A DNA stretch of 63,797 nt, the filler included, from Reclinomonas americana ATCC 50394 (Eukaryota), in NCBI GenBank assembly GCA_048213135.1. It is 16 parts of 16 records of this genome, joined end to end, with 100 filler letters (N's around TTAATTAATTAA, not from the genome) between each part and the next. Parts side by side here need not be neighbours in the genome. Positions count along the whole stretch, not along the records: positions 1 to 5,318 come from AFZH01022401.1; positions 5,419 to 7,735 come from AFZH01022404.1; positions 7,836 to 10,052 come from AFZH01022405.1; positions 10,153 to 17,898 come from AFZH01022406.1; positions 17,999 to 20,481 come from AFZH01022407.1; positions 20,582 to 23,788 come from AFZH01022408.1; positions 23,889 to 27,410 come from AFZH01022409.1; positions 27,511 to 33,575 come from AFZH01022410.1; 8 more parts are not named here. One strand, 5' to 3'. Shown piece by piece: positions 175-58,155 of the stretch. Under the pieces are notes generated by a model. That model was given only the letters and a program-made list of their open reading frames with translations, was not told where the DNA came from and did no database searches. The stretch's first letter is position 1. Every line of letters starts with the position of its first letter. The position numbers were made by a program, and so were the translations under genes.

Positions 175-3100
175 TTACTTGATCCACACGGCCTTGGCGT
201 TGCAGAACTCGTAGAGGCACAGGTGGGAGCACTCGCGACCAAAGCCGCTCATCTTGACGCCGCCAAACGGCAGGCGCGGATCGCTCTTGGTCATGCCGTT
301 GACAAAGGCCTGGCCCGACTCGAGGCTGAGGGCGATGCGCTCGCCCAGTGCCGTGTTGCGCGTAAAGACGGCGCCGCCGAGACCATAGTCGGTCTGGTTG
401 GCCAGCTGCAGGGCGTGCTCGGCGTCGCGGGCGGTGATGATGGGTGCCACCGGTCCGAACGTCTCCTCCTTGAAGGCCGTCATGGTGGAGGTGACGCCGG
501 TGAGTACGGTGGGCGCGTAGAACCAGCCCTTGTCGCCCACGCGGCGGCCGCCGGTTTGCAGTTTGGCGCCCTAAGGAGGGGGGAAGGGGGAGGAGGGGAA
601 CGGAGTGAGAGAGAAAAGAGGAAGGGATGGAGGAAGCGCGACACACTGTCGTACGGTCAGAGGCCCACAGCTTGCAGCTCTTGTCTTTTCTGCATTGTCG
701 AGTCTCTCTTTCTCTCTCTGTCTCTCTCTCTCTGTCTCTCTCTCTCTCTCCTGGGCTCAACTTCTGCATCTTGTGTACTCGTCATGCGAACGTCTCACGT
801 ACTCGCCCACAATTGGCGGCAATCAAAGCAACTCTCATTCTCTCTGTCTCGCGCATTTCTTCGTACCCAATTCTCTTCTGCGTCTCGTGAACACGCTCAG
901 TCTCATGCAGCAGTCTCCTTTCATCATCCACACTCTGTCGCACACCTTCACTTACTCATCTTGCAAGCGCAGCGATGAACTCAGACGTTTCTACTCTCAC
1001 CGTCGCTCTTCCCGCTCCCTCTCGCATAACTTCATCCCCAATCCTATTCTGCATCCCGTCAACACGCTCAGTCTCAAACAGCATTCTCCTTGCCATACTC
1101 GCCGCCCATTGATGCAGCTCTCTTTCTCTCTCCCCTTGCCCGACTGTGCCTCTACATTGCAAGGAAAAGCACAGACGTTCTTACTCTCTCCGTCGCTCTT
1201 CTCGCTCTAGAGTTACATCGCCTCCTGCCTGCTTCTGATCAAAGAGCTCTTATGGCAATCCTGCATTTCCCTCTCACAGAAAAGCTCAGACGTTCTTACT
1301 CTCTCCGTCGCTCTTCCCGCTCTCTCGAGTCACATCGCCTCCTGCCTGCTTCTGATCAAAGAACTCTTTCTTCCCTCTTACAATCGTCGCCCATTGACAT
1401 AGCTCTCTCTGCCTCTTCGCTCCTCTTGTGCATTCGAGAACTTTCTCAGTTTTTCGTGGCTCTTTCTCTACCACAATCGTCGCTCATCCAAGCGATTCTC
1501 ATTCCCTCTCGGTTCTTCATCTCCTCGAAAACTACCAGCATTCCTCCCACTCACACGTCCTTCACCCCCTCTCTCAGTCGCCCTTCCCCTCATTCCCCTT
1601 CCCTCCGTCCTCCCCTCTCACCTCCTTGATGGTCGCCTGCACCTGACGATCCAGCTGCTCCATGAGATCGCGACGAGCCAGCGGACCCATCTGCTCGCCA
1701 GGTAAGCACACAAACGCGCACACACACTCAATGCCCTTCCCTTGCCCAACACAAACCTGCGTGCGAGCATCCGTGGGATCACCGACCACCACCGACTCCA
1801 TGCGCTGCACGAGGCGGCGGCTGAACTCCTCGACCACCGGCGCCTCCACAATGAAGCGCTTCGCGGCGATGCAACTCTGGCCACTGCATCCCACAATTAA
1901 TGAGACGCGATGAACATCCCCTCCTCCATCCCTGTGCGAAAACGCAACGCATTCTGGATGCGAGCGGCGAGCGCCTGATCCGCGGCCAGATCCAAGTCCG
2001 CGTCCTTCAGCACAATGAACGGGTCCGAGCCGCCCTGCAGCAGCGGGGGAAATGAATGAGCTTTGAGTTCGTACATGTGAAGAAAATGGAGGCTACGCAC
2101 CAGCTCCAACACCGACTTCTTGATCACACTGCCCGCAATGCCGGCCACCGTCTGACCCGCGCGAGTGCTGCCCGTGAGGGTGACGGCCTTGATGTCGCGA
2201 TGACGAATAATGTCGGCCGCCTGGTCATTGTCAACGAACAGATTCTGCACGACATCGGCCGGGAAGCCGGACTCGCGGAAAATGGCCTCAATGGCCAGCG
2301 CGCTTTGTGGGACATTCGGGGCGTGCTGCGGAGGCAGGAGAAAAGGGGGGTGAGAGAGAGGTGAGGGCAAACAGGAAGATGCATGCAACCAAAGTAGAGG
2401 CCTGTTCGCCCACCTTCATCAAAAACACGTTGCCGACCATCAGCGTGGGGGCGGCGAAGCGGAAGACCTGCCAGAAGGGGAAGTTCCACGGGAAGATGCC
2501 GAAGACGATGCCGATCGGTTGGTAGGAGATGTAGGAGCGCGAGGCGTCGGTGGGGATCATCTTGGATTGGAGGAGGGACTCGCTTTCGTCGGCAAAGTAG
2601 CTGCGGGGCAGGGGGGAAGAGGGGGAAGAGGAGGAAGAGGGAGAGAGAGAGAGAGAGCGGAGAGGTGTAAGTGCGAAAAGGAGAGAATAGAAGAGAGACT
2701 GAAGAGAAAATGAGCAGAAGAAAACAAGAGAAAAAAAGAGAGACAGGTTAGTGATGAGGAAAGGAGAGGAGACAACAGACTGGCGATACGACGGAAGGAG
2801 AGGAGGGAGAATGAGGAGGTGGGGAGAGGAGTATGAGAAGGAGAAGAAAGAGAAAAGGAGAGGAGATCACACACTGGCGATAAGATGAGGCGGAGAGGAG
2901 GAAAGCGGACGAGGTGCGGAGAAACGAACAGAGAGATGGACGTGAGATGAGGAGCAGGGAAAAGAGAGTTGACGTAGAATGAGGAGAAAAAAGTGGGAGA
3001 AGAGAGGAGCGAGGGCAGAACAAGGAGACAGAAGCGAGACAAGTTGGAGAGAACAGAGAGGGACTAGTAGAGGGAGATGTGCGGAGGTGGATAAAAGAGG

Positions 3101-3580
3101 AAGAAAAGGGAGAAGAGAAGAAGAACAAAAGACATGGAAGTGAGTTAAGGAGATCAGAGACGACAGTGAGACGAAGGAGAGAGATCGCTGCGAGAGGCGA
3201 AGAGACAGGAAGAAGCAAGCCCGACAGCCACCTGCAACCAACACTCACCGCATGCCTATCGCACACTTCTGCACCTCCATGACGGCGTGCGCCAGCGGCT
3301 TGCCCATTTCCAGCGTCGCAAGGCTGCCGAGCTCCTTGGCACGCGAGTCACTGCACTCACACGAGCAGTGAACGAGCAGGCTGCTCAACCGCAGACAAAA
3401 AAAGCACGCAACAGCAACTGCGCTGCACGATGCAAGCACGAGGCACGAGCGGCAAACGACATGCCCTTCCACGTATCAAAGGCCTTCAGTCCCTTTTGAA
3501 TCTGCGAATCACAGGAAGTGGAAAAATCAGCGGGAATGCAATGCAAATGCGACGCCTAAACTCATGGAAAGTGCAAGAGC

Positions 3581-3617
<37 letters not shown>

Positions 3618-4075
3618 CAAATGAGAGGGAATGACAAAGCGAGAGAGAAGAAGAGACAAAGAGTGTGACGGTGTGCGACAAATAGGATGTGTGTGTTTGT
3701 GTGTGTGTGTGTACTCTGACACACACACTCACTCTCTCACTCACTCTCTCACTCACTCACTCACTCACTCACTCCCTCACTCACTCACTCTCTCTCTCTC
3801 ACTCACTCACTCACTCACTCGTCTCCCTCTTACACTCACTCACTCACTCACTCACTCTCTCTCTCTCTCTCCCTCTCCCCTCCTCTCCTTCCGCTCACCT
3901 TCTCCTCCACCTCCTTATTCGTGTGCGACTCGAAGCTCTTGAGGGTCTCACCCGTGACCGGGCTCACAGAGGCATACTTGGGAGGCGGAAGCGGATGCGC
4001 CGAGGTGTTACTCAGCAGTGGCGACGACAGGCCCGAGAAGCGACGAGCGACAGAGAGAAGGCCTCCGCGCAACAT
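175..4075 (-). CDS. NAD(P)-dependent succinate-semialdehyde dehydrogenase / aldehyde dehydrogenase (Sad/GabD1-like) with a mitochondrial presequence; 9 exons
   Basis: Spliced motifs: IFPWNFPFWQVFRFAAP, KHAPNVP, LTGSTRAG, LELGGSDP (catalytic Glu), QNAGQSCIAAKR (catalytic Cys), EETFGPV, PFGGVKMSGFGRE. The N-terminus MLRGGLLSVARRFS is presequence-like. Exons approx. 4075-3899, 3502-3413, 3350-3249, 2600-2414, 2325-2101, 2034-1949, 1883-1757, 1690-1622, 570-175. Confidence 0.9.
880..1400. repeat. Degenerate direct repeats (about 115-190 bp) inside the 1051-nt SSADH intron
   Basis: CAGACGTTCTTACTCTCTCCGTCGCTCTT at about 1172 and 1287 with a variant at 982; CATCGCCTCCTGCCTGCTTCTGATCAAAGA at about 1216 and 1333; CACGCTCAGTCTCA at about 892 and 1063. 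Confidence 0.75.
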
Positions 4076-4218
4076 GATCGGAACAAATAAGAGGGAATGG
4101 AGGACGCGCGACGAAGTTGAGTTGCAAGTCGTTCTGCACGCCGTGTTTACACGCACGGAGTAAGCTGCAATACCCGCGGGCCCTCAACCCTTGAGCCTTG
4201 CCAGTATGCGTTTGCGAT

Positions 4219-4228
4219 TCGACGTCGA
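4219..4228. promoter_or_regulatory. Palindrome TCGACGTCGA in the divergent SSADH/NHL promoter; it recurs at 29629, 35035 and 35197
   Basis: Same 10-mer in three divergent intergenic regions; regulatory function is inferred. Confidence 0.4.
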
Positions 4229-4388
4229 CGCGACTTCGACTTCGAATTCGCGTTGCCGTACGCGTTGCAACTCGATAGGATTGCAGTTGACAAAACCCGA
4301 TTCTTGGTCTTTGTATCGGTTCTCTGCAGAACAGGCAAGGGTCGTGCGCGATCGACAGTTAACGTTGCAAACAATCGCAAAGTCGCAA

Positions 4389-4480: not shown

Positions 4481-5180
4481 ATGCACTTGCTCTTCCGCGT
4501 CTCTCTCGTCGTCCTCTTGCTCGTTCACTCGCTCGCTGGCACTGCAAGTTGCGTGTGTGTGCGTATGTGTGTGCGCACCCTTGTGTCTCACTCATTCCTA
4601 TCAACTACCCCGCAGACGCTCAAACAGTGACCACCGTCGTCGCCAACAACATCACAGGCACCACCGCAACGCTCAATGCATGGGTCAATCCCAACAATGT
4701 CGCTGGAGGCACCACCAACTCCTTTGAGTGGTCTCCATATGCTGCCACGATTGGTGTCTCCTCTGCTACTGTCTCCGCCTTTGTGGGCACAGCAGGCACG
4801 TCGGGAACGGCTGACGGTGTTGGAGCGAGCGCGCTTCTCCATTCACCGACGGTGCGTCATACTGTATACGTAGTTCATTCTACTTTGGCAAGCGTGTGCT
4901 TCCCATGCATATGTGCCTCGTCTGCAGGGAATGGCCTTTGACGCCATGGGCAACTTGTACGTGGCAGAAAACGGGTTTGTCATCTGCATTGATTCGTCCC
5001 CTCCTTTCCTCTCCATCTCACTCTTCTCACGCGCGATGACAGCAACTGTCGCATTCGACGCATCACACCCGCAGCCACAGTGACCACCTTTGCGGGAAGC
5101 ACTTGCGGCCTCGTGGATGGCACAGGAGTGGCAGCGCAATTCAAAAGGTGCGTGCTTGCTCTCTCTCTCTCTCTCTCTCA

Positions 5181-5220
<40 letters not shown>

Positions 5221-8200
5221 TTCAACAACTTCACGCGCAGTTTATCCGGCCTCGCCATCGATCAAACGACGGGAGTCATATATGTCGCCGATGTGAGTGT
5301 GTTCTGGCATGCACGATCNNNNNNNNNNNNNNNNNNNNNNNNNNNNNNNNNNNNNNNNNNNNTTAATTAATTAANNNNNNNNNNNNNNNNNNNNNNNNNN
5401 NNNNNNNNNNNNNNNNNNGGTGGGTGGCGCGAGCAGCGCATTGGTGACGGTTGTGTCTGGCAACCAGCTGCAGTTTGCGAATGCGGGCGTGACGGCGTCG
5501 CTGGTGGTGATAGTGCGCACGACCGACAATGGCAACCCTGCCATGTCATTCGATCAGACCCTCAACATTGCTGGTTCGTGTTATACTGATTCTGTGTGTT
5601 ATTGTGGTGCACAATGATGCTGATTTACCTTTCAATTGTGCAGCACCTAATGTGACATCACTGTCGGCGACATTCGTGTCGGCACTGGCTGGCCAGTTGA
5701 TAACACTAACGGGACCTGCGCTGGTAAACAACTCGGCCGATGTGTCGGCATATGTGCTTGGCACTCCTCTCTGTGGCGCCACAACACCACCGACGGCTGT
5801 GGCCAGCACCAGCATCAGCAGTGCATTCGGCAGCGCGACTAGCATCACGCTGACGATTGGAGCGGCGGGTGCAGCTGTTGGCACATACGAGCTGTGCACA
5901 CGATGGACTCCTGCCAAGACATACCTGGCTGTGTCTGCATTCGCGATAGGTGAGGAATGAGGGGAAGGGAGAAGTCGGCCTTTGTGTGCTTGTTTGTTTG
6001 TTTGTGGGTGTGTTTAGCTGTGCTTCTGTTCCTTCTTCTTTCCTTCTTCGTCTTTCTTGCTCTCTCTCTCCCTCTCTCTCTTTTTGTATATACGTGCGTG
6101 CGTGTGTGTGTGTGCATTCGTGTGTTTGTGTGTTTGTGTATTTGTGTGTTTGTGTTTGTGATCGTTTTTGTGAGCTGAACCCCAGTTGTTGAACGACTGT
6201 GCAGGAAATGTGGCGCCCAGCGACATTCTGCTGTCGGGTTCGCAGACGTATTCAAGTGCGGCAGTGCCATTCACCGTGGGCACACTGAGCATGGTGGATC
6301 TCAACACGGGACAGACGCCGACATTCAGCATTGTCGGTGGTGTGCATGCGGGTCTGTTCAGTCTGGTTGGCGGCAATCAGCTGACGATCTCGGTGGCACC
6401 GCCGCTGAGTCGGCGACTGCAAGTGTTTGTGCAAGTGAGCGACGGCGTACTGACGTACACCAAGCAGTTCATGATTGTGTATGGTGCGTGGGTGGGAGAA
6501 GGAAGAGGGGGGGGGGGGGGAGGAAAGAGACTTGCAGAGAGTATGGTCAAGAAAGGCGGAGGATGTCCTGAGAGTGAAGGAAAAAGAGGAACAGGGGAAG
6601 GGAGTAGAAGAGAATGGGAGAGGGAATTGTCGTAGAAGGGAGCGGGTAAAGGACCAGGTGTAGATGTAAGTGGTGAACGGCGGAGAGCGGAGGTGTTGAG
6701 AAGGAAGTATGGGGTGAAGCGCAAGAGTGGAGGCTTTGAGAGGGATGAAGAGTTATGGGGAACGGTGAGGAGCAGACCAGCGGTATCCAGGGGAAACAGG
6801 CATGCAGTGAGCGTCAGGAAGGCAGCAATGACAGGAATTAATGGACAGGCTTTTGGTAGCATGAGAGGTGAAGTAGCTGTGGGGGGAAGGATGAAGTGCA
6901 GAGCTGCAGCGATGTCACGGGGAAACGAGGAAGGGCGACGAATTAGGAGCACACAAGGCAGCGACATCAGAAGTTTTTAGCTCAGGCTCAGATCTAGTGT
7001 GAAGCGAACATGGTCTCGAGTTGTGAGGAGACGGTGAAGTGTACAGGAGGTGATTTCGACGTCACTGCCAAGGCACATGGTCTGTCGTTCTTGCCCGTTT
7101 TCGGCTGTGCAGATCGTCCTTTCTCTCCAGAGACGTGTGCTTGTCCTTGTTGATTCTTCCTGCTCCCTTTCTTTTCACTCGGTTCGTGGTATATATCATG
7201 CTCGATGTGCACTGTGAGACAAGGGAATATGTGAGTGGTGCTGACGACAATTGCGGATGCATGTACAGCAACGAATGCCGGTTGTTCAGCTGTGCAGAAC
7301 GGAGTTGTGGCTCGTTGCGTTGGTTGTCAGCTGGGTGTGTCCCATCACCGGCCATCTCACTCGCACACGCACCGATCAGCGGCATTGGAGGTGTGCCAGT
7401 TCGAGGCTGTGGATCGTCCTGGCGGCACGATCGTGGCCTCGCTCGTCACTGTGCGCAACGAAATCGGCTGCTGCGAACTGTGCGATCTGTACCCGCTGTG
7501 TCGATCGTGGACTTTTCTTGATGCTGCCGCGGCATCGAACACGTTCGGTGTGAGTGTGTGCACGCTGAAGGCATGTGATCGAGAGTAGTGAGCTTGTGTG
7601 GGAATGACAAGCTCACCTCCCTGTTGCTCACAGAGCACCGTACCGGCGACAGCAGCCAATGCAGAGACGAGCAATGTGTGTGGCTCGCATTTCTGCTTGG
7701 TTTCGGGACGCAAGACGAGTGCGGCTGCGTACGATNNNNNNNNNNNNNNNNNNNNNNNNNNNNNNNNNNNNNNNNNNNNTTAATTAATTAANNNNNNNNN
7801 NNNNNNNNNNNNNNNNNNNNNNNNNNNNNNNNNNNGCCGCTGTTCTTCGACAAGGCGTTCACCATCACAACAGGTGAGGCGCACAGGATGCTGCATTGTC
7901 GGTAACTCTCTGCCAGTCTCCGCTTTCCCTTTTCCTACTGCCTCGTCCTCCTTTCGCTTCCTTTTCCGTCGCTGGTTATTCACAGTTGCTTCTCTCCCTT
8001 GCTGATATTCCACAGCCACCCAGTCACTGGCCACGCTCGCTGCTAGCAATGTCACAACGTCGTCGGTGACATTGAATGCAGTGGTCGGCAACTCTGTGGC
8101 AGCCTCGACAATGAGCAATGCGTTCGAGTGGGCGCCTTCGGCGGCTGCGCTTGGCATCACGCCGGCCGTGTCGACATGGTTGGGTACGGCGGGCATGTAT

Positions 8201-10052
8201 GGCTCGACGAATGGCTCGGGCAGTGCTGCTCGTTTTTCCAATCCGGCAGTGAGTTGTCTGTTGAAACGTTTCCATCACTCATGACTCTATAGACTCACAG
8301 GGCGCTGCAGGGCATCGCCTTTGATGCGTCGGGCTCTGCATTCATGTGCGACATGTTTAACCACACGATTCGGCAAGTCACGAGTGGAGGTGTGACATCG
8401 ACATTCCTGGGAACTACTGGAGCTACTGGCTTGGTTGATGGCGTCGGTTCGGCTGCGCGGTTTAGCCAGCCCACTGACATATCGATCGACTGGACCACCG
8501 GCTACCTTTACATTGCTGATGTTGCGTTGCTGTCGTTGTCCATGAAAGAGCTCTTCTGCCCCTGACAACTGTTGCCTTCAGCAAAATAACCATGCCATCC
8601 GCGTGAGCACTGCATCTGGCTCTGTGTCGACGCTGGCTGGCAACGGATCGATCGGCACTGCGAATGGCGCCGGATCTGATGCGAGGTTTAGAAGACCGCA
8701 CGGCATCGTGGTTGATCCGTCAAACAAGGCAGCGTACGTTGGTGACTGGCAGAACAACGCCATCAGAAAGGTGCCTACGCGCATCTGCGACCGCCGTGCT
8801 AGTACGATGCATAACTGTACTCCGTTTCTTAGGTCACATACGGCGGCGAGGTCACCACCTTCTGCGGTACGATTGGGTCGTCTGGTATTGTTGACGGGGC
8901 ATGTTCAGCAACAGCACGGTTTGGTGGACCGAATGGTGTGGCATTGGACACGACAGGCAATCGGCTGTACGTTGGTACGTGTGTGCGGCGTGCGCGTGAG
9001 GGAGAGAGAGAGGCTTTTGTGACACTAGATGTGCGCTTACACGTCTGGGTGTGAGCAGCCGATCGAGATCGCCACAACATCCGGGTGATCGACATGCTGG
9101 CGATGACTGTTTCAGTTCTGGCCGGATCTCTCACCGCCGTGACAGGGTCGACTGATGCCACAGGCAGTGCGGCTCGATTCAATGCGCCAATTGGCATCCA
9201 GCTTGATCGAGCGCGTGGCGTTCTTTACGTTGCTGATGTTGCGTCTGGTTGTTATGCAGTGCGCGTGAAGTACTTTCTCGCATCATTTATTGGAGTGTCT
9301 TTTAAAGTTTACCAACTCCACCATTCGCCAAATCGTCATCGGCACCGGTGTCGTTACAACCATCGCCGGCGCTGCGGGAGCCACGGGAGCAATCGACGGG
9401 AGCCCAGTGACAAGTGCTCGATTTGATGGCCCGGTTCGTTCGTCTGGTACTTGTGACGACTAGTCCGTTTCGTCTCTCATTGGGTCAGTCCAGGTGTTTA
9501 TGGCGTACGATACCGCGTCATCCACTCTGTATATTGCAGGTGTGCGCTCAAAGAAGAGAACCATCGTCATCCCTTGTCTTCCTGCTCAATATCTTGCACC
9601 AAAGATTACTATGGTCTCACCATCCGCCGACTCACCATCGGCTCCTCCACCGTCTCGGCCACCCCGGCCACGTCTGGCGTCGCCTCAAGCACCGCCCTGA
9701 CCGCGTCACTCACGTCGCTCGCCGCCAGCTGGACGTACTACTTCCGTGCCCTCTCCACCTCCACCGTGCCCAGCACTCTCACCGGCTCTACCCTCTCGTT
9801 CACCACCTCCAACTCGGTGCCAAGTGATCTCGCCTGCACCGGAACGACCACCTACGTTGCGCCGTCGACAGCCAACGTGCCACTGTGCACGATGAGCACC
9901 ATCGACAATGATGGAGGCCAGTCGTACACGTACGCGGTCAGTGGAGGAGCGAACGGCAGTGCTTTTTCGGTGAGCGCTGGTGCGCAGCTGCAAATCACCT
10001 CGGCGGGCCAGTCGGCCAGTCCACTGGTCGTCACGGTTCGCTCGTTCGACAA
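4481..10052 (+). CDS. Large secreted/surface protein: signal peptide, FN3-like domain with inserted NHL propeller, cadherin-like domains, PAN/apple domain, then a second FN3/NHL/cadherin-like module. Partial and crosses gaps; may be two tandem genes
   Basis: Signal peptide MHLLFRVSLVVLLLVHSLAG. NHL repeats, e.g. DGVGSAARFSQPTDISIDWTTGYLYIAD and ARFNAPIGIQLD. Cadherin-like APSDILLS..VGTLSMVDLNTGQTPTFSIVGG..FSL. PAN-like CCELCDLYPLCRSWTF..CTLK. Most exons join in frame; the 6484-7235 segment could not be resolved. Confidence 0.75.
5319..5418. other. Artificial scaffold-gap linker, first of 15 (others start at 7736, 10053, 17899, 20482, 23789, 27411, 33576, 36584, 39416, 42637, 45213, 52067, 57339, 61801)
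   Basis: Identical 100-nt structure, 44 N + TTAATTAATTAA + 44 N, with stops in all six frames. Confidence 0.97.
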
Positions 10053-10374: not shown

Positions 10375-10996
10375 TCACAACTGAGAGGCATGATAGTTGA
10401 AGTCCTGCTCGAGACACTCGGTGCCACGCCAGCCGCGGAAGCAGCCACACTTGCCATTGCGCAGGCAGATGCCATTGCCGGAGCAGGTCACGTCGGGGTT
10501 GCATTCGCAGTTGGCGCCCGCAAAGCCCGGGTAGCACACGCACCGACCCTCGCGGCATTCGCCGTGACCGAGCGTGCAGTCCACCTCTGCACAAGCACTG
10601 AATGAGACACCCACAAGATGCGACAAGAACCTCTCTCATGATGCACAGCGACTGACCACTCTTGCATGAGGCGGGCGCCACCGTCTCGGTGCTGAACGCC
10701 TGCGTGTTGACACGCACTGCAGCAGAACGCGAGTCAGCGCACACACAGCGATGACAGTGTGAGCGAGTGGGAAGGAGGGAAGAAGAGACGCAACTCGCAG
10801 CGGCACTGCCCGCCAGTGCGCACAACACCACCAGTGCCGTCAGCACGGTGAACTGCAACGAGAAGCGCGTCGGAATAAGCGCAAGAATGAACATTGTTGC
10901 CTCACACACACAAAACACACAAAGAGAGAGTGCGTGTCGCTTTCGTGTAGGACAGACACGAACCGTGTCTCGGGTTCGTCGTGAGTTGTTCCACAT
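10375..10996 (-). CDS. Small secreted protein with two tenascin-type EGF repeats; 4 exons
   Basis: MWNNSRRTRDT|FTVLTALVVLCALAGSAAA (hydrophobic leader), then CTLGHGECREGRCVCYPGFAGANCE and CSGNGICLRNGKCGCFRGWRGTEC. Splice phases are consistent. Confidence 0.75.
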
Positions 10997-38230: not shown

Positions 38231-38654
38231 TTCCCTTTCCCTTTGCAGACAACTCGAACTCGACCCTGCTGCACCACCACACACCCCTACTCTTACACCA
38301 GCGTCCACATGCAACACCCCGTTTGCCACCACGTAAGGCGGGATACCGATCGACGACGAGTCCATGTCACATTTGCCGCGCGCGGCAAAATAAAGTTACC
38401 CACAAGCGACTTCGCGACGCACTCGGTATGACTCGGTCCGGCCCCCGCGCCCACGGCTTTCCCTCATCTTTGCACAAGGTGTCTTGACATAGTCAATGAG
38501 GGCAACTGAATGACATGTCGACCTGCTAGTTGAAAACTTTCCCAACTCAAGGAAGTTGATCGGAAACGACAACTTCAATTTCTGTAGCCCGTCAGGGCCC
38601 CCCCTCATCACAAAAAGGAATTATGAAAAGAAACGCAGAGAGACAGAGAGCGCG

Positions 38655-39987: not shown

Positions 39988-42170
39988 ATGCTTCTCACTG
40001 CTGCCTCTCGCCGCCTGTTCAGCAAGGCACCAGTGCGTGTGCACACACAGATGCGCATCTCTCTCACTGTCACTCACACTGTCTCTGTGTGCATGCAGCA
40101 TGGTGTCTCTCAGCTCGGAGTCGTGGGTGCCGGTCAAATGGGCACAGGCATTGCTCTGACTGCGGCCATGCGCGCAGGAGTCTCAGTGACTGTCATGGAC
40201 CCGATTGAGGCGAGCCTGAGCAAGTCAAAGGCACAAGTCGGTCAGTCAAACATGCATGCATGCATGCAATCACTCATTCACTCTCACTCACTCCTTCCCT
40301 TCCTTCGTCACTCACTACTCACTCACTCCCTCACTCACTGACTCACTCTTTTTCATTCAGTCTCGCTTTCTCTCTTCTCAGTCTCTCTTTCTCTCTTCTC
40401 ACTCACTCACTCTCTCGCTCACACGGTCACTCTTTCTCATTCAGTCTCTCTTTCTCTCTTCTCAGTCTCTTCTCTCCTTCCTCCTCTCACTCTCTCGCTC
40501 ACACGCTCACTCATTCACTCACTGTGCTGCTCTCTCTCTCACACACACTCCCTTCTCCCCCACTCCCTTCTCCTCACTCCCTTCCCTCGCCTTCTTCTCA
40601 CATTCTCTTCTCCTTCGCCTCCCCTTCCCCTTGTCCTCCCTCCACAGAGAAGCTCCTGAGTGGCTACGTAAGCAAGGACCGCATCAAGGCCGAGGAGAAG
40701 TCGGCAATCCAAGGCCGCATGCGCTACGTGGCCAGCATGCCGGAGCTCGCCCAGTGCGACTTTGTGGTGGAGGCCGTCACCGAGGACATCCACATCAAGC
40801 AGAACATCTTCCAGGAGCTGGATCGCCTGATGGCACCCAATGTGACTCTCGCCTCGAACACCTCGTCCATTTCGATCACGGCGCTGGCGTCGGTCACCAA
40901 GCGCCCGCAGCAGGTCATTGGCATGCACTTTTTCCATCCGGTGGTCGTGCTGCAGCTGGTGGAGCTGGTGCAGGGGCTGCAGACGTCGGAGGCCACGGTG
41001 CAGCGCACGACCGCGCTGGCCGAGGCCATGGGGAAGACGGTGACACGGGCGAAGGATACGGCGGGGTTCATCTCCAATCGCGTGCTGATGCCCTACATTA
41101 ATGAGGCGATTCAGTGTTTGGCGGAGGTGCGGGAAGGGGATTTTAGGGAAAGGGGGGAAGAGGGGAAGGGAGGGAGAAAGGGAAAGGGAGGGAGAGGGGA
41201 AGGGAGGAAAGGTGAAAGAGACACGGAGGTAGGGAGGGAAAAGGAGAGATGAGGTAGTGAGAGAGTGAGAGAGAACGAATTAGAAAGAGAAGCATTCGGT
41301 TGAAGAATTGCAGCAATGCGAAGGAGAACACCCGGCAGCACTTGCTCTTTTGATCTCGCAACCTGTGCAATAGTCTAGAGAGTTCGTCTCAGTAGGTTGC
41401 AATTCTGCGTCCATTGTTTTGTCTGAGTGGAGTCGCGAACGGCACGCACGAGCACTCTTTGGTTGACCTGCTCTGTATTCCGCGTCTGCGTGTCTTTTTG
41501 GTCGTTTCTGTCACAGATAGCGCAGCTGAAATCGCGATTCTGTGCTCCTGTCTCCCTGTTGGTTTCTGTATCGCTGGAGTCGTCGTGACTAGTTTCTCTG
41601 GTGTTTTGTTCTCCCTGACTGTTCTTGCCCTCGTCGGCGCGACGCGATACTCGATACATCTGCCTCTTTCTCCGCCACTGGCTCCCCCTCTCGCTCCCCA
41701 TCTGCCTGCTCTGCCTCATTGCAGAGAAATCGAGTGGCTGTTCTCTCTCACTTTCCTTTTCCCTCTCTCTCCCTTTCCCCTTTTCCTCTCCCTCTCCCTC
41801 CCTCCCTCTCCCTCCCTCCCTCTCCCTTTCCCTCCCCCTCACCCTCCCTTTGCCCTCCTTCGCAGGGCGTGGGCACTGTTGCCGACATTGACACGACGAT
41901 GAAGCTCGGCACCAATGTGCCGATGGGTCCCCTGACGCTGGCCGATTTCATCGGCCTCGACACCTGCCTCAACATTCTGCGCGTGCTGCAGGGCGAGCTC
42001 GGCGACAAGTACCGCCCGCACCCGCTGCTGGTGCAGTACGTCACCGCTGGATACCTCGGTGAGTGTGCGCATCACGACGAGGGCCAAGGAGCGCGCACTC
42101 ACTCTTTTCCTGTGCAGGCAAGAAGTCGGGTCGCGGCTTCTACGACTACTCGGCGCCACCGGCCAAATAA
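39988..42170 (+). CDS. 3-hydroxybutyryl-CoA / 3-hydroxyacyl-CoA dehydrogenase with a mitochondrial presequence; 5 exons
   Basis: [87 protein letters not shown]. Confidence 0.92.
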
Positions 42171-42278
42171 TCGCCTCCGCCCCCTCATTCTCCTCCTCGC
42201 TGTTCGCAACGAGAGTACAAATCACCGATGGCGTGCTCACATATGATCATTATACACCTAGATATTCATTATTAAGAG

Positions 42279-42636
42279 CTATGAGACGGGCGACGCGAGA
42301 CACCGGCGGCACAGCGGGCAGTCGCGCATGCGCCCCTGCGACTCGCACGCCGCAAACCACGTGTCCACGCACTGCGCGTGGAACAAGTGACCGCACTCGA
42401 GCTCACGCAACAGCCGTGGGCGCGCGGCGGCCTCGCGCCGCCGGCCACCACCACACGCACCGAATCCGCTGTAGCACACCACGCACTTGTGACCGCGCGC
42501 GCGCGCCTGCAATCGCACCTGCTCCGCCTCCACGGCCTCCGCCTTGGCGCGGCGCTCCACTCGTCGCCGCCACCGTGCGACCATCACTCCGCCGCACGAC
42601 ACTGTGGCCATCATGCACACACACAGCGCATGCCAC
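42279..42636 (-). CDS. RING-H2 E3 ligase, C-terminal part; 5' end lies in the gap
   Basis: CVVCY..LECGHLFHAQCVDTWF..CPLCR. Confidence 0.8.
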
Positions 42637-42879
42637 NNNNNNNNNNNNNNNNNNNNNNNNNNNNNNNNNNNNNNNNNNNNTTAATTAATTAANNNNNNNN
42701 NNNNNNNNNNNNNNNNNNNNNNNNNNNNNNNNNNNNATGTTGCTCCATCGTTCTCTCCGTGGGTGCGCGGTGGAAAGAGGGACGACGCGGGAAAATATTG
42801 TTTCTCCGTGATTACAGTTTTCGGTCGCGCGCAAACTGCAAGTTGCAATTGGGTTGCAGTTGGGCATGCAACATTGCTG

Positions 42880-43520
42880 CAGGAACTTCATGAGTGGTAG
42901 GCGATGGGAGCGATTATGGCCACTGCTGCTGCGATCTCGATCGAGAATTCGCGATATCGATCGATATCCAAAGCTGTCTCTTTGAACGCGGTGCTGCAGC
43001 CTGCTCCTCTATCGCGAGGCTTGGATCTGCTAGCTACAGGACACAAGCTGCTGAGTGCTACGCGATCCCACAGCGATCGCAGCTGGTGATACGAGTGTGA
43101 CGACAAGTGGATCGCTGCGATCGATCGCGACACAGCAAATTCGTTCCATCACAAACGATCGCTGTGAGCGCTGCGTCGATCGCGCGGCTTCGATCTGCTT
43201 CTGCAGGACACAAGCTGTTGAGGGTGACACAGTCCCCTGTCGATCGTCGTCGCTGTGGCAAGTGCGACGACGCGTGAATCGATCGATTACGAATTCGTTC
43301 CATCACAAACGATCGATGTGCACACTGGAGGCCTGCGTCGATCGCGAGACGTTGATGCGGACACTGTATGGCACAAGCCCATGAGCAATGCGTGATAGGA
43401 ACGATTGCAACTGGGGATGCAGGTGCGGCGACGACTTGTCGCAACATCGATCGGTTGATGATCGAACGCGGAGACTTGCAATTGGAGAGCGATCGTTTCG
43501 ACGACGGTCCGCACGCGACT
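42880..43520. repeat. CGATCG/palindrome-rich degenerate repeat (period about 155-167 bp)
   Basis: TTCGTTCCATCACAAACGATCG at about 43140 and 43294; CAGGACACAAGCTG at about 43037 and 43204; perfect palindrome GATATCGATCGATATC at 42953-42968. Confidence 0.65.
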
Positions 43521-45020
43521 TCGTACGTGCGTCAAGCTCTACATCTCCGAAAGCATGGAGATCCATTGACAGCTGCGTCTGCAACTTCGGATTGCTTGCA
43601 ATATCGACAAGTTGATCGCGAAAACTTCAACTTGTTCGAATTCGAAGCTCTGAATGATAAGAGAACCTGCCGCTGTCGAGCCGGTGTCAACAAACAACAA
43701 TTCATGCACCCACAAACAGATAAGGTGAATGGATTGTTGTTGTTATGTTGTCTGCAAGGACGACATTGATTCGCGCGATCTGCAACAGCAACAGGTGTCT
43801 TGATGACCAAGTCCAACCATATCCAAAACATCAACACAAACACCAGTCTTGAGGCAGCAGCAGGTTCTTTGTGTGTGTGTTTGTGTGTTCGCTCTTGGGG
43901 CGCCGAACAAGTCGAGAACTGCGATCTTCACCGCAGCGTGGCTGAACAGTGGTGGATTTGACGCACTTGCATAGACGCATAGCGTTTTCTGCGATCGTAC
44001 ACAGCACATCGAATTCGGGGCCCGGGAAAGGCCAAAAATGCAAAGCCAGGCACACAAAGCAAAGCCGGGTCCGGATCGATATCCGTGAAGCAAGCAACGC
44101 AGTGGAGGCAACGTCATTGTCACAAGAGAAAACCTTCGTGTTCGCCGCTCTCCTCTCTCCCAATCAAGAGAGCAACACTGCTGCACCGAGCTCGCTGCAA
44201 GAAGTCGAGGAAAAGATGACTTTTGTGCTCTCGGTTCGCTTCCGTTGGCTTCCTCTCTTCGGAGAGTAAGCCAAAGGTGATACTGCAGTGCTTCGGACTT
44301 TCTCGATGACAATGAACCACATGGATGCGCCTCTTCATTTCGTTGGCGATATCACGCGGGCTATTCACATTCTCACAAACTGCAACACACACACACACGT
44401 ACAAAAGAGGGGGGTAGGGGCCCGCCCTCCTCGCACACCGAGAAGGCGTCGCCCAGATCGTGCACCACTCGCCCCCGATAGGGCGAGGGATCTTTACACG
44501 AACAAGCGCGCCTCCTACCGGAAACGAGGGGGGAGAAAAGAAAAGAGAACAGACGGGCATTGGGGGGAGGGGGAAGGAACTTTAGGTAGGTAGCTGAACA
44601 GGAATTGTACAACAAAACAGAACTATACAAGTACAGACACACTCGCGACTGAGTGTGCCTAGGATGGGGATGGCGCCAGCAAACACAACAGACACACAAA
44701 GAGAGGAGGGGGAGGGGAGGCGGGGGGAATTATTGCACGCGACAAGGGGTGCGGAGCACCGAGAGCGTTGTGCGCAGGCGGTGGGTAAGGTGCGGGATAA
44801 GGCACGCAATTTCGCGGCCACCACAAACCCCACACACGCCTGCGGCACCGACGGTCATCGGGCACACATACCGCACCCCACCATTACTCGCGGCAAGACC
44901 ACCTCCACCACCACACATACCACCAGACAAGACGACGCCAGGAGCCCCGAGATTAACGCACGCAAGACAAGAGGGATAGGTAATGAATGTAGAGAGAGAC
45001 AACTAGGAACGAGGGAAAGT

Positions 45021-52186: not shown

Positions 52187-55100
52187 TTACGAGAAGCTGC
52201 AGCTCAAGATTCGGGGCAAACATGACGCACGTGCTCTCGGCACACGCAGTAGCTGTACCAGCTCCGCCACCACTGTGTAACACGAGTCACGATGTGTCAG
52301 CAAATATTGGACGGAGAGAAAAAGGCAGCATGAGTGCGGCACCTTCTGAGATGTGTGCTCCGGAGCGCCAGTTCTCTCGCGACAGCGACTCCATGTGCAC
52401 AATGCCACTGTCGTCAATGTTCGGATGCAGCAGCCTCGTGACACACGTTATCGTCGGTGGGTAGAACGGGTAGCCACTCGACAAATCCAGCAAGAAGGTG
52501 AAGTTGCCGCCCTCATACGGCGTGTTTTCCTGCAAAAGCACGACTGTCGTGAGTCGCCTGTAGGAGTAAGCGAATGCTGCACTCTGTGCGCACAGACGCA
52601 CCGGTCCGAGCACAGTGATCCGCCAAAAGTAGATGTTGTCATCCGGGTTGACAAACAGGCCTTCCACGGGTCCGCCGGAAAAGTTGACAGCACCACGGAG
52701 CATAAAGTCCAGCTCCTGCGTTTCACAAACAGCAGCAGTGAGAGAGAAGAAGAAGAAGAAGAAGAAGAAGAAGGAGGAGGAGGAGGAGGAGGAGGAGGAG
52801 AAAGAAGAAACAGAGAAGACGAGAAAGACACATACAGGTAAACATGCAGCCAGAGACTCAACAAGAGAGAAAGGTAGACAGAGAACGAGAGCGAGGGAAA
52901 CAGAGTGAGCACGCAATCTGAGAAGCGGAGAGGATAAGAAAGATCCGAGCTCGCCACACATGTGTGCACATGAGAGGAGGGAAAGCCACACCTTGCGCAG
53001 CCAGGCGCGTCGTGCCCGTGCATACAATGCACGACATCTGTCGACTTCTTCAGTGGATGCCGAATCGCCACTGTCGAGTAGCGGTGAGCACACAAGCTTC
53101 GTACTGCGATGGCGTGCGTGTTCACGAAACTCTTCCTCGGCCTCGCCCACCGCTCGCCACATAATGTCCTCCTCCAGTCGATCGATCGTGTGTCGATGCT
53201 CGTCAATGATGCGCATGAATTCCTGTTCGCACGCAGCATAAGACTGCTGCTATCCCGTGGCCAGCACCGAGTACGGGTGACGCAACTGCCGTTCGCGAAC
53301 CACGTCTACGATACAAGTACAAACACTCGCGACCAGCAAACACCCACAGCCACAGCAGATTTTCTACCGCTTCCCTGCAAGCCGCCACAGTCACTAACTG
53401 AACCGCAGTGGAGGACATCTCGTTGCTCATTGCCGAACCTTCTGTCACAAGCCAATGCCACGTCCTCCAGATTGTTGCAGGCCTTGCGAGTGGCGTCAAC
53501 TTGCTTCAGAAGCAGCTGTCGAGGAAGAACGATAAGATACAGAGTTGCCACTGCAAGGAACACATGCATATGGGCGCGAATGCCAAAACCTCTGCGTTGG
53601 CGTCTCCACGACGGTAGTGCTCCACGGCTTCACGAGAAGCAACCGAGCAGTCGTACAGTGTTGACTCCACTTCGTCACTGTCGCGAGTTTCGAGTGTGAG
53701 TTCAGGAGTCGATGTAAGAGAATCCTCAAGACAACGAAACGTAAAGTCAATGTCGAGCACGGCATCCTCCAGCCGATTAATGCTCTTGCGCATGCTGTCG
53801 ATTCTTCGATACAACTCCTATCAAACAATGCAGTCAGAGGCAGCAGAACTTACACACGCACTCGTTCGCAACAACAGCCTACCGCTTTGCTGAGAGTGTG
53901 TTGTACGTAGTCTTCGTGGTATCGCCGCGACTTTTCGGCACACGCTCTCAGGCCCTCTTCGATTTCATCGGTACTGCAGTGATTCCAGTGAGATGTTGAC
54001 GATAGCAAAGGGAGTGGAAAACAACGGTGGACAAGCACAGAGGAGAGAGAGGGAATGATGAAAGAAACAGTTCTCTGTCTCTCGTAAGGTGCGTGCGCCC
54101 GGTGCTCGCCACGCAACGAGTTGTGATAGATCAGTCTCTCGAGACGCTCCAGGGTAGCGCGATGCAGTTCCACCTGTCCCTGCAGTGCCTGTGAAACACC
54201 AGGGTTAGCACGACTGGCGTGCAACGCGCGCTACAAATACACATTAACACACCCTGTCGTGCAGACTGCCGCACTGAAACACGGTGAGGGTGTCACTGGC
54301 GGCTTTGATGAGCCCGCGGAGAGCACCCTCGATTTCCGCAGTTGGATCCGTCGTCACGGTCGTGGCCACTACAAAAGCGTTCGTCACACCTCCCGACGGA
54401 TGCATGTTGACAGCAGCAGGTCGAGCCGGTGAGTCGTCTCCGTCAAACATGCCCATGCCATTGGCTTGTCGGGTGGCTGCAGGCATCGGCGACGCGTCGT
54501 GCAATCGCATTCCCAACGAGCTCGAGCTGCCACCGTGCATTCCACCGTGGCTGTCTGACACCATTCGCTGTGTTGGCGACGACGCCTCACTGGCCGAGCG
54601 CAGCGCCGACGACGGTGACTCATCGCCACAAGTGTCCACAATGAATGCACTCGGTGTGGTGGCGCGTGAGCTCGCCACGCTGCCTGGCGATCCAGCACGA
54701 GGCGGTCGCCCGTGCGTATACGCAGCAGGGGGCAGTGGCGGCAGACCGACGGCTGTTGCGCGTGGCTGACCGCTCTCGTGAGCATACACGGATCCGGACT
54801 CCGTTGAGAAAAATACCGGGCGCTGCGCACTGCGTGTCGGACTGTGCGACATTTTACCGGTCGCTCCGTTGTCGCCTCCGTACGGCGACGAGGCACGCAG
54901 CCTCTCGTTCTCGCTCAGCGCCTGGGTGATTCAACGGGAGTGGGAAAATGACGACGAGACAGGGAGAGAGTGGATGAGTGGGTGAGTGTGACTGTGTGGG
55001 TGTGAGAGTGAGTGAGAGACGGAATTGCACTTGCCTCGGCGAGCATGGCTGCGAGGCGCTTGTTGTCCTCACGCACATCGTGCAGCTCACTGTCGAGGTC

Positions 55101-55297
55101 GACATAGTCCACGTCCTTCGGTGGGTGCGGTTCGTGCATCGATGACGACAACTGTGTGTGTGGGTGTGAGTGTGAGCACGCAGCGCAGAGCACACACTCG
55201 CTCTCCTGTGTGCGCGTGTGTGGCCAACCTTGGGTGGGTGCGGTGCCGCGTCGTAGGTGCGCTCGGTCGGGCCCCCGGCGCTCATGTGCGAACTCAT
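52187..55297 (-). CDS. Low-complexity/coiled-coil protein with a C-terminal ubiquitin-conjugating-like (UEV) domain lacking the catalytic Cys; 3' end uncertain
   Basis: AWLRK|ELDFML..DDNIYFWRITVLGP|ENTPYEGGNFTFLLDLSSGYPFYPPTI..LLHPNIDDSGIVHMESL. Upstream exons join in frame from MSSHMSAGG at 55297. Confidence 0.7.
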
Positions 55298-55416
55298 GTC
55301 ACTTTCTCTCCACTCTCGTGACAAAAAAAATCGGGCTCAACGGTCAGTATTCTTCTGCCGCGCGTTCCAAGTATGTCAGGGAACTTCAACGGATTCTCAA
55401 GCACAGCGAGTCTGTT

Positions 55417-58155
55417 TCACTCTGCGGTGTTTGCATCCCACGCTTCGTCTTGGCCCTGCTCGGCGTCGAAAGGCTGCGGACTTGGTGCGTGCTGAGCAAA
55501 TGCATTGAGTAACGGTCACGATCCATATACAATCACACACACGAGCTGGACTGCAAGAGTCACATGCACGCAACGACAGCAGCTGCCTCCACCTCCGTGA
55601 TGTGCTCCGTCAGGGCACCACGTAGCCGTATGATCTGGCGATTCAGCGAAGAGCTGTGCGATCCGCCCAGGGAATCAGCACACAAAAAACAGGCAAGAGA
55701 GGGTGAGACGTAAAAGTACGAAACACGAGCATCCTTTCGTCCTCGAGCTCCTCGCGCAGCTCGTCGTTCTCTTGTGACACTTTTCTGTACATGCTCTGCA
55801 GTTCCAGAGCCTCGTGATGCGCCAAGTGGAACGATTCGCGCTTCTCCTTGCTGATGCCCTCCTTCAGTCGACTGTTGCGTGCGCGCAGAGCCTCGCCCTG
55901 CGCCAAGTATGCGGCCTTGAGCGAGTCTAGTTGCTGCTGGAGCAAGTCGTACCGACGACGCCACTCAAGCATGATTTCCTGCGCGCGCCACAGCGGTATC
56001 AGCAGAGGAGGCACACACCAAAAGCGGATTGTATCGCGATGCGCACATGCTTCTCGGAGTGGCACTGCGCTCGCAACGTCTCTGCACGGCGCGATGAGTC
56101 ACACACTGGTGTCATGCAATAGAGGAGGAGAGAAGAAAACACACCGAGGCCCACAGTGCTGTGTTTCAGCATGCTGATCTCCTCGAGTGCCAGTCGCAAC
56201 TGCGTCTCGGTCTCCACAAGCGCCGCCCCGAGAGTACTCCGCTCCTCCTCCGCGTCCCTCTGTAATCGCTCGACTTCCTCCTCCAGATCGCCCACCCGCG
56301 ACTCCAGCTACGCGTGCAGAGGAGCGTGAGCGACAACTCCGAGTGTGCGCGGATGCACAACGACAAACCTCGCCGATTCGCTCTTGCTGCTTCTCGGCCT
56401 GCCGCTGGAGAGCCACATGCTCGTCCGACGACACCTGCAGTCGCTCGACAGTGCCCTCCAGCTCCGCCACTCGCGCGTTGGAGGCCGCCAGCATCGCATC
56501 GTAGATACGCAGACGACTCGCCAAGTCCTCCGCCGACATGTCGTCCGTCACCTGCACCACAGGCCGATTGATGATCTGATCGCTCACGGCCAGCGAGTTC
56601 ACCAGGAGCATTGGATCGGAGGCCGGATGCTCTTCGAGACACGCGAGAAGCGACTGCGGTGGTTGTGATGATATAAGAGAGTGTGAGTGCACGTGACTCT
56701 TGTGCCAAAGTGCGTGTCGCTCACCGTGATCGAATTGCCGCCGTAGGCGTCGCGCAGTAGAGCGACCAGGCGAGACTCTCGAAACAGTGCCGGCTCTGCT
56801 GGCGTGCCGCTGGCCAACGTCTTCACAAGCTTGGCATGCGCCACCATGTCCTTGTGATCGCGCCCCACATACTCCACGTCAAAGATCTGCATGCGCGACT
56901 CGAGGACCACCGGGCGGCCTGGCAAATATGGTTGTGCATGTGCATGAGTAGACAAAACGACGACGATGGCGGCAAGACGCCTTCAGCACCACACCTTCGT
57001 GCCCGGTTCGCTGTGTGAGGTGAATGTTGACAACGAGATGTGTCACATGCTCGACGCCTGCCTCGCGCTGCTGACGGCCTTGCTCCAGTGCTCGCCGGCG
57101 ATGAAGTGCGGCCTGGTTCATTAGTCTGGCAAGCACACTGTGGTGAGCACAGAACTTGTGGTGCTCAAGAGCGGATGATACGTGCGCAACAATCTCATGT
57201 GCTCCTCACTCTCCACCGACACCACTTTCAGGCCCAACACTGTAACACTGTCGCCGTCGAGCTTCAGGCCCACTGCCGACGTGGGCGACTGTGGTGGTGG
57301 TGGAGGTGGGGGAGGAGATCTGTGGCATACGAGTGAGGNNNNNNNNNNNNNNNNNNNNNNNNNNNNNNNNNNNNNNNNNNNNTTAATTAATTAANNNNNN
57401 NNNNNNNNNNNNNNNNNNNNNNNNNNNNNNNNNNNNNNCCCGAACAATGAACCACACCGGGCAGGCATGAATAATACGGGCAATGGTGGGCACGGCAATC
57501 GCAACGGCATGGGGCAGCGAATGAAGAGGGGCGAGGGGGCACACAAACAACACAGATAACAGGCGCAACAATGGTTGAATAATGGAGGCCACAACAGATC
57601 ACAGGCGCGGGTCCGTGCGACCAAACCACAAACCTCACCGCCGACCACCACCAGTGCCGTGTTGCGTCCACGAAAGAGTTGCAGCAGCAGCGGTTTGACC
57701 ACCGAGCGATACACATTGGTCTGTCGCACCCATTCACATCAACAAACCTTCATCGGTCACCATCGCTCCTGCCCCCAACTCACCTGGTACCCCTCATCGC
57801 CCTCCTCAGCCGCAAACACCTCGGCCACGCGAAACTCTTGCACAGCTCCCGTTGCGGTCTCCGTGACAGCGATCGTGTCGGGTCGTCGCACGCGCACCAC
57901 AAACGGCGATGATGAGGAGGAGGAAGAGAACGCAGGCGGAGTCGCCACACATGCCACGTATGGACGAAAGGTGTCGGTGGGCGCAATGTCGTCGGGAGTG
58001 AACGAGGGCGCCGAGCGGAGACTGTCGTGCACGAAGCGGAACTGACTGGAGAGCGTGCTGCTGGCGGAGGACGCGGAATCGTGTCGCGCGTGTCGCGTGT
58101 GTCGCGTCATGTGCAACAGAGGACTGCGTTGTGTGGGACTGTTGCGCACACCGCC

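Follow-up and report, generated by a model that had tools for sequence, protein, structure and literature searches.

U12-type introns are marked by the donor (5′ splice site) RTATCCTT and by the branch site TCCTTAAC near the acceptor, and humans possess variant U1 small nuclear RNAs (snRNAs), or vU1, some of which are said to differ in the 5′ end that binds the donor. The DNA considered here is a 63,797-nucleotide (nt) window from Reclinomonas americana ATCC 50394, the whole stretch that was analysed, in which the heptamer GTTGCGT starts a second class of introns where the exon does not end in G. Recognition of human donors by U1 in a register shifted by one base (+1) was found by Roca and Krainer (2009), as described by Tan et al. 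(2016; PMC4856993), and in the excerpted sections of the latter the validated non-canonical U1 registers, shifted and bulged together, account for ~1.5% of human donors. Mutually exclusive donor classes, one anchored in the exon (AG//GUNNN) and one in the intron (NN//GURAG), are established in animals and plants according to the excerpted parts of PMC11732430 (also PMC9803359 and PMC11842720). In PMC11732430, which is a review, the words 'protist' and 'bulge' are absent and 'register' appears only twice. Full-text searches of the literature turned up no description of GUUGCGU-type donors, though a genome paper mentioning them may exist.

U12-type introns resemble the GTTGCGT class in being a second kind of donor, one whose word is long, lies within the intron, hardly varies and makes no demand on the exon, but the class described here has ordinary CTCAC branch sites, YAG ends and a far higher share of the introns. 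The vU1 RNAs set a precedent for extra U1-like RNAs acting as a dedicated reader, although the window contains no such RNA. The human shifted register, as outlined in the excerpts of PMC4856993, is similar in that the cut is made at GU and the consensus block lies one base deeper in the intron, where G+1 would stand in place of G-1. It differs in scale, ~1.5% of human sites for all registers contrasting with 8 of 25 homology-fixed introns here (about a fifth by the count of an initial annotation of this DNA), and in pairing, as human shifted sites pair well with U1 once shifted whereas GTTGCGT pairs poorly with canonical U1. The human bulged registers of the same excerpts, with the bulge at +3 or +2, likewise comprise GU, one extra U and then the consensus block; however, unbulged H|GTGCGT (H being A, C or T, and the bar the cut), expected to be at least equal, is unused in the window. 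The anticorrelation between exon and intron sides that separates AG//GUNNN from NN//GURAG donors, as far as the excerpts of PMC11732430 describe it, recurs in an extreme form (G at -1 in 17 of 17 ordinary donors and in 0 of 8 GTTGCGT donors), but the NN//GURAG class has G at +5, while the GUUGCGU class has C at +5 and G at +6.

The GTTGCGT class and its rule on the -1 base are almost certainly real, and the class starts roughly a fifth to a third of the introns. GTTGCGT occurs 31 times on both strands, against 11.23 +/- 3.28 in 100 dinucleotide shuffles, of which none reached 31 (maximum 21). Under an order-3 Markov model, H|GTTGCGT is observed 29 times with ~10 expected, and G|GTTGCGT, with 2 observed and 2.0 expected, is not enriched. 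An abundant second donor class had been claimed in the initial annotation from 20 GTTGCGT sites and seven variants. All of these sequences are present at the coordinates and on the strands given there, each followed by a stretch resembling an intron, and the claim of exons not ending in G is borne out by a -1 G in 0 of the 20 GTTGCGT sites and 1 of the 7 variants. The claim of abundance is upheld by the 31 occurrences against 11.2 expected and by the eight members among 25 homology-fixed introns.

Junctions were fixed by homology in genes recognised through Pfam scans of stop-free open reading frames (ORFs): the succinate-semialdehyde dehydrogenase (SSADH) gene (178-3530, minus strand), the kinesin-5 gene (11380-15800, plus strand), the PHF5 gene (plus strand) and the gene of an importin of the IPO4/5 type (24520-29380, minus strand). 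A purpose-written protein-to-DNA spliced aligner was used that requires an intron to start with GT and end with AG and contains no donor matrix, with 20 full-length homologs for SSADH, 30 full-length homologs from an exhaustive search for the importin, and 24 homologs for kinesin-5. Ten GTTGCGT introns were placed in this way, without a donor model, nine by alignment and one by a Pfam profile:

1884..1948, minus strand, SSADH intron of 65 nt beside the catalytic-Cys region, donor tgc|GTTGCGT, phase 2, found with 20/20 homologs, the junction free of indels
3351..3412, minus strand, SSADH intron of 62 nt, donor gct|GTTGCGT, phase 2, found with 20/20 homologs
14265..14337, plus strand, kinesin-5 tail intron of 73 nt, donor cac|GTTGCGT, phase 2, found with 10/24 homologs (a plurality), local score at the 99.9th percentile
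24242..24306, plus strand, PHF5 intron of 65 nt, donor gat|GTTGCGT, phase 0 after an Asp codon, Pfam profile contiguous across it
24974..25036, minus strand, importin intron of 63 nt, donor gca|GTTGCGT, phase 2, found with 22/30 homologs
25329..25400, minus strand, importin intron of 72 nt, donor att|GTTGCGT, phase 0 after an Ile codon, found with 20/30 homologs
26483..26549, minus strand, importin intron of 67 nt, donor gct|GTTGCGT, phase 0, found with 28/30 homologs
27763..27829, minus strand, importin intron of 67 nt, donor cga|GTTGCGT, phase 0, found with 24/30 homologs
27960..28052, minus strand, importin intron of 93 nt, donor att|GTTGCGT, phase 2, found with 19/30 homologs
28754..28813, minus strand, importin intron of 60 nt, donor agt|GTTGCGT, phase 2, found with 30/30 homologs

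Over 431 matched residues, the best SSADH alignment contains no insertion and a single deletion, and at the six importin junctions each rival GT is picked by at most 3 of the 30 homologs. In PHF5, positions 15-81 of the Pfam profile end at ORF residue 117, the codon before 24242, and position 82 is the first codon after the acceptor. The initial annotation had held that all 20 GTTGCGT donors restore reading frame and conserved motifs; this is secured for the ten introns above, and nine of the 20 stand on weaker evidence.

An intron was counted as homology-fixed when at least half of the homologs agreed on its junction, which gave 25 introns. The 17 with ordinary donors all have G at -1, and none of the eight with GTTGCGT donors does: T precedes the cut in five, A in two and C in one (Fisher p = 9.2e-7). 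The ordinary donors are varied beyond G|GT (GTGAGA, GTGGGC, GTCTCT, GTTAGC, GTATGT, GTGAAA and others). Within the four checked genes, counting the sense strand only, GTTGCGT is a donor at 10 of its 11 occurrences (the eleventh being 26327, a possible further intron) and G|GTGCGT at 3 of 4, compared with 0 of 3 for H|GTGCGT, 0 of 4 for H|GTGAGT and 0 of 9 for H|GTGTGT. The non-G base at -1 is fixed by the protein in eight of the ten verified members: six are in phase 2, where -1 is the second codon position, and of the four in phase 0, two come after an Asp (GAT) or Ile (ATT) codon, neither of which has a synonym ending in G.

The same preference is seen over the whole window when sites are scored blind to the donor. 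A local score combining flank coding potential, open frames, an acceptor matrix, intron composition and length was computed for 7168 scorable GT sites, and sites at or above its 98th percentile were termed intron-like. This level is reached by 11 of the 19 claimed sites that could be scored, namely 10794 and the ten homology-fixed ones, with 4548, 8521, 9238 and 18966 between the 86th and 94th percentiles; among GTTGCGT sites outside the earlier list only 26327 scores high. Altogether 12 of 30 scored GTTGCGT sites are intron-like, none with G at -1, as are 7 of 93 GTGCGT sites, all with G at -1. The corresponding figures are 0 of 29 for GTAGCGT, GTCGCGT and GTGGCGT together, 1 of 39 for GTTGCGC, GTTGCGA and GTTGCGG together, and 0 of 6 for GTTGAGT. 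Some unshifted H|GTGAG sites look plausible, such as 20926 at the 96.9th percentile.

A grammar whose parse was limited to donors with G at -1 scored 1704.7 nats, and adding the 31 GTTGCGT sites raised this by 112.9 nats with ten more introns. Adding H|GTGCGT brought 0.0 nats, H|GTGAGT 3.0, GTCGCGT or GTGGCGT 0.0 and GTTGCGC 10.0. The -1 base alone separates poorly (log-odds of 1704.7 for G, 1693.8 for T, 1572.8 for C and 1451.0 for A), and these values compare unequal numbers of candidate sites, with more for T than for G. Donor-blind Viterbi gene finders were weak, calling ~50-60 introns and recovering 11 of 25 verified donors, and serve as secondary evidence only; in one such run GTTGCGT was the commonest donor heptamer (6 sites). 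A parse with a trained two-class donor model recovered 15 of the 20 claimed sites but differed from homology in calling 2389 for 2413, 27000 for 27004 and 29229 for 29199, and no intron census was drawn from it. A gene finder that relies on one donor matrix will misplace or overlook a large part of the introns here, as the parses of this analysis did when the class was not modelled.

In branch points, acceptors and lengths, GTTGCGT introns match ordinary ones. They have GT...AG ends, a branch site and a YAG acceptor, and their removal restores the frame, as expected for GT-AG introns of the major spliceosome. A CTCAC-type motif lies 7-33 nt from the acceptor in seven of the eight verified introns, and all eight end in CAG; their median length is 66 nt, against 72 nt for ordinary introns, and branch motifs and YAG acceptors are alike in the two classes. 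A U12-type identity was rejected, as the donor and 3′ sequences show neither the U12-type donor nor the U12-type branch site. Judged by these sequence features, they are true GT-AG introns handled by the major spliceosome, and what sets them apart is a donor word that hardly varies.

The PHF5 intron, placed after ...EKD, does not look like a recent gain. An intron at the identical position is found in 3 of 12 distinct metagenome PHF5 loci (<=76% identity), all three with canonical donors, and in none of the other nine:

6202-6345 of locus L001, PHF5 intron, donor T|GTGAGT
from 1562 of locus L004, PHF5 intron, donor T|GTAAGT
6181-6276 of locus L005, PHF5 intron, donor C|GTGCGT

L001, L004 and L005 come from unrelated eukaryotes, and by this comparison the position appears to be old and patchily kept. 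Because the same position is served by canonical donors elsewhere, what would have changed is how this lineage marks an old intron. Across 35 metagenome loci (315,364 bases, some of them near-duplicates) GTTGCGT occurs 10 times with 28 expected, and it is therefore not a general property of eukaryotic DNA. A relative near enough for a survey of donors was not found among the protein matches: kinesin-5 has at most 51% identity to its best matches, which are distant and scattered (plants, Andalucia, Naegleria, labyrinthulids), and the importin is matched best by proteins of a heterolobosean, Volvox and Cyanophora.

As the initial annotation had noted, GTTGCGT is an ordinary donor with one T added; that donor, G|GTGCGT, is the commonest ordinary one, and TGCGT(G) lies one base further from the cut. 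The two-class donor model reads G(0.88) C(0.44) G(0.93) T(0.62) G(0.54) at +3..+7 of the ordinary class and G(0.79) C(0.93) G(0.76) T(0.70) G(0.46) at +4..+8 of the second. Both classes share an element G-[G/U]-U-G-C-G-U-(G), cut after its first G if the second letter is G and before its first G if the second letter is U. U1 would bind this element in one fixed register, intron G+1 occupying the usual place of exon G-1 and U+3 that of U+2, and the later catalytic steps would cleave at GU wherever it is placed, which would make the +1 shifted register a mainstream class. H|GUUGCGU(G) serves exons whose last base is other than G, a base that the encoded amino acid mostly sets. Selection would most simply account for the absence of G at -1: any G|GT... 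works there, and nothing would preserve the costly heptamer. What reads the element, be it RNA or protein, and the register of the reading we infer from these patterns. For a second-word class read in a +1 shifted U1 register, mechanism included, the chances of being right and of being wrong are about equal.

Several points weigh against a shift of ordinary U1. The alternative register proposed in the initial annotation is favoured in its shifted form, H|GTGCGT bringing no gain and T being the only extra base in use, but its pairing with canonical U1 is poor. Against the canonical U1 5′ end AUACUUACCUG, as printed in the excerpts of PMC4856993 and from which the organism's own U1 may differ, ViennaRNA gives duplex energies of -8.6 kcal/mol for G|GUGCGUG, -6.4 for U|GUGAGUG and -2.0 for U|GUGCGUG; for U|GUUGCGUG it gives -1.1 kcal/mol, which is no stable duplex in either register, even though a hand count against the same U1 end finds 4 Watson-Crick pairs and 1 wobble in the shifted register and 2 and 1 in the canonical one. 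Whatever the register, GTTGCGT is a poorer partner than H|GUGCGU or H|GUGAGU, and therefore a shift of ordinary U1 alone does not explain the choice of word. Canonical U1 would prefer GUUGAGU or GUUAAGU, of which the former is never intron-like and the latter, as GTTAAGT, has 0 occurrences in the window. The shifted register alone does not predict the missing G at -1 either, and needs a separate argument; one may lie in the rarity of G overall at register position -2, where it is found in 1 of 17 ordinary donors. At the U6 stage the motif is without G at +5, which calls for no U6 pairing or a displaced pairing. Nine of the 20 listed GTTGCGT sites stand on weaker evidence, 22800, 33960, 54117 and 55574 being candidates, the evidence for junctions consists of homology and sequence scores, and the only snRNA gene in the window is that of U4. 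The poor canonical pairing leaves one of three explanations: U1 differs in this organism, a second U1-like RNA or a protein is at work, or the G pair at the exon-side end outweighs nearest-neighbour energies. Its invariance suggests that the C has a pairing partner.

Searches with Rfam, at the gathering threshold and at E <= 1, found no U1, U5 or U6 gene in the window and one U4 gene. The latter lies at 38466-38598 on the plus strand (RF00015, 54.3 bits, full length), and its U6-pairing stretch, UGCUAGUUGAAAACU, fits the family consensus.

If ordinary U1 does not read the word, GUUGCGU could be a separate consensus with a reader of its own, either a variant U1-like snRNA with the 5′ end ...ACGCAAC... 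or a sequence-specific protein, canonical U1 serving G|GU... and a few H|GUGAGU donors. Every pattern would be accounted for without extra assumptions: the heptamer is invariant down to the C at +5, which canonical U1 cannot pair, H|GTGCGT is unused while some H|GTGAG sites such as 20926 are plausible, and G|GTTGCGT is at its expected frequency; variant U1 snRNAs, moreover, exist in humans. The UGCGUG block common to both donor classes would, however, be a coincidence, no candidate RNA was found by Rfam in the window, the 5′ end of U1 is very widely conserved, and the possible GTTGCGC variants (59050, 20800) parallel ordinary GTGCGC donors, so that an entirely separate reader is doubtful, if still a serious candidate. 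A broader form has somewhat better prospects while still falling well short of even chances: the lineage would have re-tuned or duplicated its first donor reader, so that a U1 with an altered 5′ end, or an additional U1-like RNA, pairs with GUUGCGU (the predicted end being ...ACGCAAC...) and serves a fifth to a third of the introns, those whose exon cannot end in G. Bulging of a U, by comparison, would leave U1 (and U6) paired canonically with G+1 and U+2, the U at +2 or +3 looped out and GCGU taking the places +3..+6. Bulges at +3 (or +2) are proven for human sites in the excerpts of PMC4856993, and U, the only extra base seen, could bulge at either of two positions beside another U. Yet unbulged H|GTGCGT, with equal pairs and no penalty, is unused (0 of 3 sense-strand donors, 0.0 nats), all seven intron-like GTGCGT sites follow G, and G|GTTGCGT is unenriched although G at -1 would add a pair. 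The strict need for T and the disuse of H|GTGCGT speak for the shifted and against the bulged register, and the latter is unlikely.

Descent could imitate recognition if the introns came from one burst of an introner-like element ending in GTTGCGT, with no special reader; an invariant heptamer and insertion sites not ending in G would both follow. The introns nevertheless share no similarity beyond +8 (20 contexts compared by eye), their lengths and 3′ signals equal those of other introns, and three other eukaryotes have an intron at the PHF5 position, marked by a canonical donor. A word kept intact amid such divergence implies selection in any case, which makes mere descent very improbable. 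Least probable of all is an artefact, be it an assembly that overcalls a T, junctions put in the wrong place or GC donors lying three bases further on (GTT|GCGT). The assembly is fragmented, its 16 contigs being joined by linkers, but a sequencing error could not depend on the preceding base or strike donors only, the sites are scattered over many contigs, and homology fixes the junctions without indels, as in SSADH. GC donors would keep the frame while adding a residue within the SSADH N-x-G-Q motif and between EKD and RDG of PHF5, which the alignments and the contiguity of Pfam positions 81 and 82 disallow. The class is thus confirmed as statistically strong, abundant and rule-bound; the +1 register is the best available reading, though unproven, and an altered or additional reader is a serious alternative.

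The long-standing question addressed is how independent the initial recognition by U1 and the choice of the cut by U5, U6 and Prp8 are. Non-canonical registers are otherwise rare, and a fixed mainstream class with a clean usage rule would make the independence of recognition and cleavage directly testable. The class also sets a sharply defined expectation for this organism's snRNA genes. A re-tuned or extra reader, if true, would constitute a third natural mode of marking donors beside U1-type and U11-type recognition, and a natural experiment in which recognition and cleavage sites are uncoupled by one base throughout the genome.

The remaining sites of the initial list, together with two additions, are less certain:

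4548..4554, plus strand, claimed donor caa|GTTGCGT, 89.9th percentile, plausible candidate
8521..8527, plus strand, claimed donor gat|GTTGCGT in an NHL/teneurin-like gene, 92.6th percentile, plausible candidate
9238..9244, plus strand, claimed donor gat|GTTGCGT in an NHL/teneurin-like gene, 93.7th percentile, plausible candidate
10717..10794, minus strand, intron of 78 nt in an EGF/teneurin-like gene, donor cga|GTTGCGT, 99.5th percentile, in the donor-blind parse
18135..18141, minus strand, claimed donor ctc|GTTGCGT of the TFIIS zinc-ribbon gene, in the trained donor-model parse, the assembly gap being too close for a local score
18960..18966, minus strand, claimed donor gtc|GTTGCGT, 86.4th percentile, in the donor-model parse with a doubtful acceptor
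22800..22806, plus strand, candidate PHF5 exon-1 donor ATGGCCAAGCATC|GTTGCGT, encoding M-A-K-H plus one base
33954..33960, minus strand, claimed donor gct|GTTGCGT, 68th percentile as a short intron, candidate
54111..54117, minus strand, claimed donor ctc|GTTGCGT, 38th percentile as a short intron, candidate
55568..55574, minus strand, claimed donor gtc|GTTGCGT, 49th percentile as a short intron, candidate
26265..26327, minus strand, possible extra member, an in-frame stretch of 63 nt in the importin acidic loop, cga|GTTGCGT...GACAG, 99.0th percentile
20743..20800, minus strand, variant aaa|GTTGCGC, intron of 58 nt, 97.5th percentile
58992..59050, minus strand, possible variant donor cga|GTTGCGC, intron of 59 nt, absent from the initial list, in the donor-blind parse

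The site at 22800 lies ~1.2 kb upstream of the PHF5 body, and its M-A-K-H resembles exon 1 of the relative L001, which is suggestive of an exon-1 donor. No short ORF-compatible intron starts at 22800, the intron entering an assembly gap, and no second PHF5 exon was found in 22781-24060; the missing exon probably lies in the gap. The stretch 26265-26327 has a coding log-odds of -1.5, compared with +6.7 and +12.3 in its flanks, is spliced out by 3 of 30 importin homologs and could belong to the class as one more intron, perhaps an optional one. The initial annotation had presented the variants as mirroring ordinary donors; 20800 fits this at its high percentile, and five others, between the 85th and 93rd percentiles, are weakly supported, with 20646 outside the scorable set. 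Only 59050 among the GTTGCGC sites reaches the 98th percentile.

At four sites GTTGCGT is followed by GAG, which places a GTGAG 5 nt downstream (GTTGC|GTGAG): 25395-25400, 18136-18141 and 42406-42411 on the minus strand and 22800-22805 on the plus strand. These could be tandem alternative donors; at importin 25400 the GTGAGT 5 nt downstream is picked by 3 of 30 homologs. The kinesin donor 11613 (ggt|GTGCAT, 11 of 24 homologs) was considered as an unshifted donor after a non-G base and set aside, as it lies in a variable loop where 11598 (tgg|GTGCGT) offers an in-phase alternative with a far better acceptor.

The SSADH gene contains seven spliceosomal introns, and its nearest full-length database relatives (452-471 residues, 57-66% identity) include several with bacterial names (Thermoanaerobaculia, Chloroflexi, Acidobacteria); the gene may be of bacterial type and long resident in the eukaryote. 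Two of its introns, at 571-1621 (1051 nt) and 2601-3248 (648 nt) on the minus strand, are long beside the usual 60-90 nt, and ORFs on the opposite strand at 58-975 and 575-1207 overlap the first of them.

The window has a G+C content of 52-62% and is eukaryotic DNA packed with short introns. Its 16 contigs are joined by 15 linkers of the form N44-TTAATTAATTAA-N44 (e.g. 5319-5418 and 27411-27510). Beyond the four genes above, Pfam recognises:

PAN/NHL genes and EGF teneurin-like genes
an alpha/beta hydrolase gene
a gene with a TFIIS zinc ribbon
an aldo-keto reductase gene
a WD40 gene, a 3-hydroxyacyl-CoA dehydrogenase gene, and RING and UBC genes

Genes continue over linkers, the importin over 27411-27510 and PHF5 over 23789-23888, where one exon has apparently been lost in the gap, and contig ends are often CT/GA-rich runs of low complexity. 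Between 32001 and 52000 the plus strand has a sustained, strong GC skew (+0.19 to +0.23 in four of five 4-kb bins, with -0.08 at 40001-44000) and an AT skew of up to +0.22, and Pfam matches are sparse over much of this region. It may hold a very large, poorly conserved minus-strand gene with the UBC domain (52290-53249) at its end.

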